A stretch of DNA of 64,000 bases from Escherichia coli (GTDB taxonomy: Bacteria; Pseudomonadota; Gammaproteobacteria; Enterobacterales; Enterobacteriaceae). Position numbers and translations under genes: made by a program. The notes below the pieces were generated by a model that saw only the letters and a program-made list of their open reading frames with translations, was not told the origin of the DNA and searched no databases. Positions 12,582 through 49,578 of the stretch are shown here, in pieces. The stretch lies in NCBI RefSeq assembly GCF_003334355.1, contig NZ_QOWP01000005.1; one strand, written 5' to 3'. The number at the start of each line of letters is the position of its first letter. The stretch's first letter is position 1.

Positions 12582-13316
12582 ATGAAAAAACGCTTTATTT
12601 ATCACGATGAAAAATCGAATAAATTTTGGTGGATAGATTACGAAGGGGATAGTTTAGCTGTCAACTATGGCAAGGTAGGTAGTATTGGTAAATTCCAGAC
12701 AAAAGAGTTCGATAATGAAGAACAGTGTCTGAAAGAAGCCAGTAAATTGATTGCCGCAAAAATGAAGAAAGGCTATCAAGAAGATCCAAAGTTTAACTTC
12801 ATGGATCGCTACTATTTTGATGATGAAGAAATTGGGTTACATGTTAAAACGTCACACCCAAACTTCCAGTGCCATTTTACTGATCCACTTTATATGTGTT
12901 GCTGGGATGAAGAATCTCCTTTTGGCAGCGATGAAGGTGCTGATGCTCTAAACGTTCTTGAAAATAGCCTCCGTAAAGAGCCGGATCTGGACTGTGCTGA
13001 TTTCCCTCAAATGTTAATTGAAACTATGTGGGGTATGAAATACATCGCTATGGACAGTATTCTTGAAGAGGATGTTCGTGCGCAATTACTAGTCGATGAA
13101 ATGAGCACTATCCAGAGCAATATGATTACCTACGCAACTGCATTCGGTCAGATTAAAGTCATGGGTAAAATCTCCCATAAACTTAAAAAGATGGGACTCA
13201 ATGCACTAGCGCGTCATCAGCTTACCGCAAAAATTCTTCAATGGGGTGACGGTCAGGACTCACCAATACTTCAAAAAATGATTGATGACCTTACGGCGTT
13301 TCCTCACGAAAATTAA
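12582..13316 (+). CDS. yfeS: WGR-domain protein of unknown function YfeS
   Basis: 244 aa; N-terminal motif FWWIDYEGDSLAVNYGKVGSIGKFQTKEF typical of WGR domains. Confidence 0.8.
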   Translation: MKKRFIYHDEKSNKFWWIDYEGDSLAVNYGKVGSIGKFQTKEFDNEEQCLKEASKLIAAKMKKGYQEDPKFNFMDRYYFDDEEIGLHVKTSHPNFQCHFTDPLYMCCWDEESPFGSDEGADALNVLENSLRKEPDLDCADFPQMLIETMWGMKYIAMDSILEEDVRAQLLVDEMSTIQSNMITYATAFGQIKVMGKISHKLKKMGLNALARHQLTAKILQWGDGQDSPILQKMIDDLTAFPHEN

Positions 13317-13365
13317 ATACTGCATTTGTCGGCAGCAACAACTGTTAAAAAAGTGCGCTTTGTTT

Positions 13366-13470
<105 letters not shown>

Positions 13471-13504
13471 TGCGTTTGTCATCAGTCTCCGATGCTATTA
13501 ATCC

Positions 13505-14416
13505 TTAAATCCCCGCCCCCTGGCTAAAGTGCTCTTCCCCAAACACCCCGGTGGAAAGGTAGCGATCGCCACGATCGCAGATGATCGCCACCACCACCGC
13601 ACCAGGGTTAGCTTTTGCCACCCGCAGTGCTCCGGCAACCGCGCCGCCGGAGCTGACGCCACAGAATATTCCTTCCCGCACCGCCAGTTCGCGCATGGTG
13701 TTTTCCGCATCGCGCTGATGAATATCCAGCACCTCATCCACCAGAGAAGCGTTGAAAATCCCCGGCAGATATTCCGCAGGCCAGCGGCGAATGCCGGGAA
13801 TGCTACTGCCCTCTTCCGGCTGCAGGCCAACAATGGTCACCGGTTTGGATTGTTCGCGCATAAAGCGTGAAACGCCGGTGATAGTGCCGGTTGTTCCCAT
13901 GCTGGAGACAAAATGGGTAATGCGCCCGCCAGTTTGCTGCCAGATTTCCGGCCCGGTAGTGGTGTAATGGGCGTAAGGGTTATCGGGATTATTGAACTGA
14001 TCGAGCAGCTTTCCTTCACCACGATTAGCCATCTCCAGCGCCAGATCGCGCGCACCTTCCATGCCCTGCTCTTTGGTGACAAGAATCAGTTCCGCACCAT
14101 AAGCACGCATCGCCGCACGGCGTTCCTGGCTCATGTTGTCGGGCATCAGCAATTTCATGCGATAGCCTTTAAGCGCGGCAATCATTGCCAGCGCAATGCC
14201 GGTGTTACCACTGGTGGCTTCGATTAACACATCACCCGGTTTAATTTCCCCGCGCTTTTCCGCCTCGACGATCATCGAAAGCGCCGCACGATCTTTTACC
14301 GAACCTGCCGGGTTATTGCCTTCCAGTTTTAACCACACTTCACTGCCGTTATTCGGCCCCATTCGCTGCAACTTCACCAGAGGCGTATTGCCTATTGTTT
14401 GTTCTAATGTACTCAC
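13505..14416 (-). CDS. cysM: Cysteine synthase B (O-acetylserine sulfhydrylase B)
   Basis: 303 aa from a GTG start at 14414-14416 (VSTLEQTIGNTPLVKLQR); the longer track ORF extends into the REP-containing spacer and is rejected. Confidence 0.92.
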   Translation of the reverse strand: MSTLEQTIGNTPLVKLQRMGPNNGSEVWLKLEGNNPAGSVKDRAALSMIVEAEKRGEIKPGDVLIEATSGNTGIALAMIAALKGYRMKLLMPDNMSQERRAAMRAYGAELILVTKEQGMEGARDLALEMANRGEGKLLDQFNNPDNPYAHYTTTGPEIWQQTGGRITHFVSSMGTTGTITGVSRFMREQSKPVTIVGLQPEEGSSIPGIRRWPAEYLPGIFNASLVDEVLDIHQRDAENTMRELAVREGIFCGVSSGGAVAGALRVAKANPGAVVVAIICDRGDRYLSTGVFGEEHFSQGAGI

Positions 14417-14440
14417 GATCTCTATCCATACGTGGTGTTG

Positions 14441-14476
14441 CCTGATGCGACGCTTGCGCGTCTTATCAGGCCTACA
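14441..14476. repeat. REP element in cysA-cysM intercistronic spacer
   Basis: gcctgatgcgacgcttgcgcgtcttatcaggcctac palindrome. Confidence 0.8.
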
Positions 14477-14549
14477 GGTTACAAACCTTGCCATTAAAAA
14501 GCCCGGATCGCGGGAAGCGCCTCCGGGCGTTTAACATTCACTCAACCTA

Positions 14550-15647
14550 TCAGGCGCTTTGTGCGAGAGCAAGTTCCTCATCGCGGGTTTCGATACGCTC
14601 GTCGCCGTTATACAGCCGCGCATGTTGCAGACCAACGAATAAACGCTCGCCACGCTGCGGGGCATCGTCGCCATGCATCACGACCGTCAGCGGTTCGTTG
14701 TACCACCCCAGCGGCTGCACCACTAATTGGGTGTAGTGACCTTTCGGGCTGGCTTCCAGTACCTGTACCGGCAGCGGCGAATCGAGGCTGGTACGGCGGC
14801 TGATATCCACTTCCCAAGGGCGCAGGAAGAGATCCACCGGCCCCTGATACGCAGGTGTGTAGCCCAGCGGCCAGCGATGCGCGCCAACATGGAACTGCCC
14901 GCCGCGAATGGTTCCCTGCAGGCGGTTCACTTCGCCCATAAATTCGAGCACAAAACGGGTCGCCGGTTCGCGCCATACCTGATCCGGCGCGTCAGCCTGT
15001 TCAATATTGCCCTGGCTCATCACAACTACACGATCAGCTACTTCGGTCGCTTCTTCCTGATCGTGGGTCACAAAAACGCTGGTGAATTTTAGTTCTTCAT
15101 GGAGTTGACGCAGCCAGCGACGCAGCTCTTTACGCACCTGCGCATCCAGCGCGCCAAACGGTTCATCAAGCAGCAGAATTTGCGGTTCCACAGCCAGCGC
15201 GCGCGCCAGCGCCACGCGCTGTTTCTGGCCGCCGGAAAGCTGCGCCGGATAACGATCCGCCAGATGGGCAAGCTGGACCATTTCCAGCAATTTTGTCACT
15301 TTCGCTTTGATGGCTGCGGCATTCGGGCGCTCGCGACGCGGCAGCACCGTCAGGCCAAAAGCGATATTGTCGAACACCGTCATATGGCGGAACAGCGCGT
15401 AATGCTGGAACACGAAACCGACTTTACGATCACGTGCGTGCAGGCGGCTCACGTCGGTGCCGTGGAAGCGAATATGCCCGCTGGTTTGATGCTCCAGCCC
15501 GGCGATAATGCGCAGCAGCGTGGTTTTCCCGGAACCGGACGGCCCCAGCAACGCGACCATCTGACCTGAAGGAATATCCAGTGAGATATCGTTCAGCACC
15601 TGGGTGCGACCAAACGACTTCTTAATATTGGCAATCTCAATGCTCAT
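14550..15647 (-). CDS. cysA: Sulfate/thiosulfate ABC transporter ATP-binding protein
   Basis: 365 aa; Walker [13 protein letters not shown] signature LSGGQKQR, Walker B LLLDEP. Confidence 0.97.
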
Positions 15648-35998: not shown

Positions 35999-36183
<185 letters not shown>

Positions 36184-49502: not shown

Positions 49503-49578
49503 TGATTGCCGGATGCTGATTGCCGGATGCGACGCTGACGCGTCTTATCCGGCCTACAGCGTCTTATCCGGCCTACAT
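49503..49578. repeat. REP element with internal short direct duplications
   Basis: tgattgccggatgc x2 and gtcttatccggcctaca x2. Confidence 0.75.

Follow-up and report, generated by a model that had tools for sequence, protein, structure and literature searches.

Can a repeated palindrome set the level of cysM apart from that of the transporter genes ahead of it? The initial annotation of the cysA-cysM junction proposed that it could: a REP element in the intercistronic spacer, carried on the operon mRNA, might act as a partial terminator or as a stability element and so uncouple cysM from the transporter genes. We analysed this junction in a window of 64,000 nt of Escherichia coli DNA (the window being the whole stretch under analysis) and compared it with the corresponding loci of related genomes.

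The cysA-cysM junction

The window belongs to E. coli, and a 401-nt query spanning the site was 100% identical to strain 214-4 and was found in all 5426 complete E. coli genomes searched. The features of the junction, all of them on the (-) strand, are collected in Table 1. CysA is 100% identical to K-12 CysA (tblastn), the TGA stop codon of its gene occupying 14552-14550 (-). In the K-12 annotation the gene order is cysU-cysW-cysA-cysM, with a gap of likewise 133 nt between the last two. The spacer coordinates of the initial annotation are exact as judged by the ORFs and by the K-12 annotation, and cysM is indeed the last gene of the cluster. The GTG start assigned to cysM is also correct; it agrees with the translation, matches the K-12 annotation and is kept in nearly all orthologues examined. 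In mRNA orientation the spacer reads TAGGTTGAGTGAATGTTAAAC-GCCCGGAGGCGCTTCCCGCGATCCGGGC-TTTTTAATGGCAAGGTTTGTAACCT-GTAGGCCTGATAAGACGCGCAAGCGTCGCATCAGGC-AACACCACGTATGGATAGAGATC-GTG.

Table 1. Features of the cysA-cysM junction, in the order in which they are transcribed
Feature	Position in the window	Strand	Basis
cysA CDS, 365 aa	14550..15647	-	ORF list and translation; RefSeq annotation concordant
cysA-cysM intercistronic spacer, 133 nt	14417..14549	-	ORF coordinates; same length in K-12
GC-rich hairpin, outer stem GCCCGGA (14528-14522) / TCCGGGC (14507-14501), inner 3-bp stem	14501..14528	-	Inverted repeat, fold
UUUUU tract, then AAU	14496..14500	-	Sequence
REP-bearing insertion of about 66 nt, common to E. 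coli and E. albertii	14426..14490	-	Alignment, spacer lengths
Single REP, mRNA strand GTAGGCCTGATAAGACGCGCAAGCGTCGCATCAGGC	14440..14475	-	Inverted repeat, motif count, Rfam, fold
cysM translation start: weak Shine-Dalgarno-like GGATAGAG (14427-14420), GTG (14416-14414)	14414..14427	-	Sequence
cysM CDS, 303 aa	13505..14416	-	ORF and translation; K-12 annotation concordant

An N-terminally extended CysM was considered as well. An ATG at 14492-14494 (-), directly 3' of the U-tract, is in frame with cysM and opens a 329-aa ORF (13505-14494) that traverses the REP. This candidate was rejected because the ATG has no Shine-Dalgarno sequence and the extension would be translated REP sequence, and because a +1 T indel, which gives a 134-nt spacer in other E. 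coli (for example strain L002 of our set and B2-type matches), disrupts the frame, while the GTG is conserved across genera. The 329-aa ORF is almost certainly non-coding, and its ATG is a potential trap for gene callers.

A REP element in the spacer

The palindrome reported for the spacer is real. Its two 14-nt arms (14440-14453 and 14458-14471) are 86% complementary around a 4-nt loop, forming an imperfect palindrome, and a GTAG tag stands immediately 5' of the stem on the mRNA (-) strand, at 14475-14472. Folded as RNA, the element has a free energy of -22.5 kcal/mol (z = -5.0), and none of 200 shuffled sequences was equally stable. The window contains 12 copies of its tail motif CTTATCMGGCCTAC, where 0.02 would be expected in 64 kb; all 12 have the ...GGCCTAC tail in common, and near-identical places number a median of 6, and up to 21, per E. 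coli genome (megablast). The Rfam model naRNA4, which is derived from REP325, gave a partial, sub-threshold match at 14439-14471 (37.9 bits). The element is a REP, far beyond chance. It lies entirely within the non-coding spacer, in an extragenic location, and in the path of transcription from cysA to cysM, as had been stated. A 153-nt spacer query was covered to at least 80% in 5422 of the 5426 complete genomes, at 96.8-100% identity; the spacer, REP included, is fixed in E. coli.

The remaining REP copies of the window are recognisable as Y-type and short Z-type; within the Y/Z1/Z2 nomenclature, we take the cysA-cysM element to be of the long Z1-like type. The RefSeq K-12 feature table contains no REP features and gives no official REP number for the element. 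The cysA-cysM spacer holds one REP only and is not a BIME, which comprises at least two alternating REPs. It is an ordinary, already catalogued kind of repeat, and the function proposed for it is the textbook one for REPs.

Other REPs were noted in the window. Shortly past the stop codon of cysM, in the interval where cysM and yfeS converge, is a cluster of two REPs (13362-13450), a Y-type and a short Z-type in facing orientation; its Rfam matches stay below threshold, naRNA4 scoring 40.5 bits and ES036/CssrF 36.6 bits, where the gathering score is 37.6. A further pair of REPs, a tandem duplication, occupies 36020-36059 and 36120-36159, about 100 nt apart, and two overlapping REP tails, 19 nt apart, are found at 49544-49576.

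The REP hairpin might by itself uncouple cysM, as a partial (Rho-assisted) terminator and/or as a block to 3' exonucleases that stabilises the upstream cistrons. The stability of the hairpin in mRNA orientation speaks for such a role. However, the sequence 3' of it is AACACCACG (AACACC), with no U-tract, so that this feature of an intrinsic terminator is missing from the E. coli REP, and REP effects are reported to be highly context-dependent.

A terminator-like hairpin after cysA

A GC-rich hairpin that is not a REP, and that is absent from the initial annotation, begins 21 nt past the cysA stop codon. Its outer stem consists of 7 bp of GC character and is followed directly 3' by UUUUUAAU; with its flanks, it folds at -20.3 kcal/mol. 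Both the MFE and the centroid folds of the whole spacer retain this hairpin together with that of the REP. The anatomy of an intrinsic terminator, that is, a GC hairpin with a U-tract within 0-2 nt on the transcribed strand, is present at 14496-14528. A standard terminator scan of the window made no call at this hairpin, because the scan demands a loop of 3-8 nt. Transcripts ending here would never include the REP, which argues against the REP as the regulator.

A U-tract of only 5 U and an internal loop in the stem mean that termination may be inefficient or absent, and the hairpin is possibly an RNA-stability element only. The short U5 and the interrupted stem also favour the view that neither hairpin terminates, the hairpin and U-tract being instead a processing or stability barrier, or a site for Hfq or another protein, and cysM being transcribed partly from a promoter of its own. 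Against this view, no sigma-70-like promoter was found when 13300-15000 was scanned on both strands.

A possible anti-terminator was also considered, in which the last cysA codons (14552-14566) would pair with the hairpin interior (14508-14522; 15 nt, 80% complementary). It was rejected because the pairing falls outside the MFE and centroid folds and would leave the outer terminator stem intact.

Conservation of the hairpin across Enterobacterales

Eighty CysM-relative loci, one genome per species, were assembled, and the spacer was taken where cysA lay directly upstream. A custom scan then searched for hairpins followed within 0-2 nt of the 3' arm by a tail in which four or more of the first five bases are T, a positive call being one of -8 kcal/mol or lower; dinucleotide shuffles and reverse complements were used as controls. 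On the coding strand, a hairpin with a T-rich tail was found in 54 of 57 cysA-cysM spacers, as compared with 36 of 171 dinucleotide shuffles and only 5 of the 57 reverse complements. The stems comprise 31 distinct 5'-arm heptamers and are unalignable across genera, with 5' arms such as GCCCGG in Escherichia and Citrobacter, AGCGGCC in Cedecea, GGGCGGG in Pantoea and AGGCAACC in Serratia; the stem of Photorhabdus is long and AT-richer. It is the architecture that is preserved across the order, not the stem sequence. The standard terminator scan calls the orthologous site in Citrobacter, Cedecea and Acerihabitans.

The initial annotation had thus probably given the partial-terminator role to the wrong hairpin, since both the U-tract and the order-wide, strand-specific conservation belong to the hairpin at 14501-14528. 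The feature conserved throughout the order is a hairpin with a T-tail and not a REP, which again weighs against the REP as the uncoupling device.

The position of the hairpin bears on how cysM is transcribed. From the end of the stem to the cysM start the distance has a median of 25 nt and is at most 40 nt in 42 of the 54 positive spacers; in most relatives the hairpin and T-tract end about 17-36 nt before the GTG. We infer that such a gap leaves no space for a downstream promoter, so that cysM would be expressed via read-through. No sigma-70-like promoter was detected in the three orthologous regions scanned (Citrobacter, Cedecea and Acerihabitans). The narrow gap and the promoter scans make it quite unlikely that the junction holds no terminator and that cysM is partly expressed from its own promoter, and the strand-specific T-tail is characteristic of terminators rather than of hairpins that only stabilise RNA.

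In two genomes of the set, Enterobacteriaceae RIT691 (locus L021) and Kluyvera genomosp. 1 (L013), a gene other than cysA directly precedes cysM. In L021 this gene is a large ORF (4-2433) with sub-cut-off matches to alpha-L-rhamnosidase models. The hairpin, the T-tract and a TGATAG stop context before cysM are kept in both loci (TGATAGGTT in L021 and TGATAGCTT in L013).

This gene order leaves room for an unrecognised cysM promoter. With cysM and its hairpin standing after a rhamnosidase-like gene, the cysP promoter is perhaps not obligatory, a point in favour of a cysM promoter and a hairpin that does not terminate.

Insertion history of the REP

The spacers of E. coli, E. albertii, Pseudocitrobacter faecalis, three Citrobacter and Lelliottia were aligned. 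The cysA stop codon, the adjoining TAGGTT, the hairpin and the T-tract are orthologous throughout the alignment. The spacer measures 133 nt in E. coli and E. albertii as against 66-68 nt in Citrobacter and Lelliottia, where the REP block is absent and only the hairpin and U-tract are found. The REP-bearing insertion of the two Escherichia species (Table 1) lies between the U-tract and the ribosome-binding region of cysM and is bracketed by ATGG repeats, which leave its boundaries ambiguous by a few nt. Its arrival widened the distance between the terminator-like element and the cysM start from about 19 nt to about 85 nt.

In P. faecalis a larger insert is found at the same point, with two REPs, one of them inverted relative to that of E. 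coli. At this locus (L004, 1407-1565), CysA and CysM are 96-97% identical to those of E. coli and the spacer is E. coli-like except for its REP content, which suggests either transfer or rapid REP turnover at the site.

GTAG-tagged REPs of other types or arrangements were found in the same spacer at 14 Enterobacteriaceae loci; in Enterobacter, Pluralibacter, Pseudescherichia and Phytobacter a T-tract forms part of the cysM-proximal REP itself. Judged from the alignment, the junction is a recurrent REP landing site, and the E. coli REP apparently postdates the terminator-like element. As to the stems, neither is touched by the positions at which the window and E. coli L002 differ; E. albertii has two stem changes, both of which yield G-U pairs. 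These changes are compatible with maintenance of the structure, at a level that is statistically not compelling.

Two explanations of the REP have to be weighed against this history. For a regulatory REP speak its fixation in E. coli and its retention in E. albertii with pairing-compatible stem changes only, as well as the T-tract on the cysM-adjacent REP of Enterobacter, Pluralibacter and their relatives. However, Citrobacter and Lelliottia dispense with the REP and retain the hairpin and U-tract, and we regard it as unlikely that the REP hairpin itself uncouples cysM. The REP could instead be a neutral passenger, a mobile or selfish palindrome lodged in a permissive, untranslated spot close to a terminator and having no measurable effect on cys expression. 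The varied REP types at the 14 loci point to recurrent insertion and turnover rather than to a conserved regulator, neither the ancestral hairpin with its U-tract nor the ribosome-binding site of cysM was disrupted by the E. coli insertion, and an identity of 97-100% within E. coli is no higher than ordinary intergenic conservation. On the other side, the displacement of the terminator-like element together with a new, stable hairpin in the cysM leader could plausibly alter mRNA decay or translation. A neutral REP is a realistic possibility, to which we give somewhat less than an even chance, and it is compatible with an uncoupling effect of the older, terminator-like hairpin.

Published expression and 3'-end data

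The Term-seq tables of Adams et al. 2021 and the TERMITe tables list no 3' end near K-12 2539584-2539716 and none for the whole operon, and the SMRT-Cappable-seq supplements list nothing for cysA or cysM and no 3' end for the operon. The lack of reported 3' ends at the site agrees with a junction at which neither hairpin terminates; as the tables hold no 3' end for any part of this operon, this absence is weak negative evidence. Only Campylobacter and Pseudomonas work came up when the literature was searched for promoters of cysM or for accounts of the cysA-cysM spacer.

A study of an APEC lsrR mutant (RNA-seq/qPCR) reports cysUWA up about 9-fold with cysM unchanged; cysP was reported unchanged too, so that these data do not cleanly isolate the cysA-cysM junction. 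The pattern fits uncoupling at that junction, whatever the causal element. Published bicyclomycin data place a strong Rho-dependent region inside cysP (K-12 2543521 (-), about 18354 of the window; Rho score 17). Premature termination early in the operon may outweigh the cysA-cysM junction for cys expression in rich medium.

A further Rho-dependent region in these data runs antisense to yfeS; it lies past cysM, just beyond the REP cluster at 13362-13450.

A model for the junction

On the basis of the anatomy, conservation, strand specificity, insertion history and REP family membership observed here, we propose the following for termination, how efficient it is and what the REP may do. The operon mRNA would form two independent hairpins within the spacer. 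The one at 14501-14528, with its U5, would be an ancestral terminator-like unit that stops a fraction of the polymerases that start at the cysP promoter and leaves a cysPUWA mRNA with a protective 3' hairpin. Only polymerases that read through would reach cysM, and read-through, together with the GTG start and the weak Shine-Dalgarno sequence, would keep CysM below the transporter proteins. The REP would be a later arrival in the Escherichia lineage, brought in downstream of the terminator within the insertion of about 66 nt; on read-through transcripts it would be at most a 3'-exonuclease barrier or a modest Rho-assisted attenuator.

We lean towards the reading that the hairpin and U5 are a leaky intrinsic terminator and 3' stabiliser that put cysM below cysPUWA, with the REP secondary at most. 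As regards the uncoupling of cysM proposed in the initial annotation, the REP is probably not its primary device, and the adjoining hairpin with UUUUU is the better candidate. The narrower proposal of a REP acting as a partial terminator or stability element keeps some footing in the stabiliser and attenuator roles documented for REPs between tandem genes, and is weakened by the missing U-tract and by the restriction of the insertion to one lineage.

The hairpin and U-tract might also be a conditional attenuator, its read-through depending on coupling to cysA translation, on sulfur or thiosulfate status or on a factor acting in trans. We consider this very improbable; if it were true, the thiosulfate-specific cysteine synthase would gain a layer of control separate from CysB, and recurrent REP insertions would re-tune the valve lineage by lineage.

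Comparison with known systems

REPs with effects inside operons have been described. Dar & Sorek cite a REP stabiliser in malE-malF (Newbury et al. 1987) and BIME-associated Rho-dependent attenuation (Espeli et al. 2001). REP325 in yjdM-yjdN has a dual terminator-stabiliser role, and 146 REP-containing tandem pairs show expression biased upstream (Harris et al. 2026 preprint). The REP325 precedent speaks for a regulatory REP at cysA-cysM, and the genome-wide bias of tandem pairs does so too and stands against a neutral passenger. The cysA-cysM element resembles these intra-operon REPs and BIMEs: it is an imperfect palindrome with a GTAG tag, placed between two genes that run the same way within one operon, and is transcribed as a stable hairpin that would be expected to favour the upstream cistrons. 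It differs from a BIME or the REP325 array in that there is a single REP, and from the REP/BIME systems in that a distinct terminator-like hairpin precedes it, so that only read-through RNAs would carry the REP.

Neither the element nor the concept is new, nor is a novel mechanism involved. The value of the analysis lies in annotation and experiment design: the targets for uncoupling are two separate hairpins, not the REP alone, and the older hairpin, with its terminator anatomy, more probably accounts for the uncoupling of cysM.

Leaky intrinsic terminators inside operons set the stoichiometry of distal genes, as do the rplL-rpoB attenuator and the internal terminator of rpsU-dnaG-rpoD. The cysA-cysM junction is like them in having a GC-rich hairpin with an immediate U-tract between a stop codon and the next cistron, and in that its distal gene, cysM, is proposed to depend on read-through. 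It differs in that its U-tract is only 5 nt and its stem is interrupted, and by its sequence it is a candidate terminator. The REP-terminators of Enterobacter, Pluralibacter, Pseudescherichia and Phytobacter occupy the same spacer and likewise consist of a GTAG palindrome just upstream of cysM; in those four genera, however, the REP stem and TTTTT(T) form one element, whereas E. coli has two hairpins and a REP with no T-tract. Related genera offer REP-less, REP-as-terminator and REP-plus-terminator versions of the junction, and the locus is a clean natural example of repeated REP insertion beside a conserved, putative intra-operon terminator.
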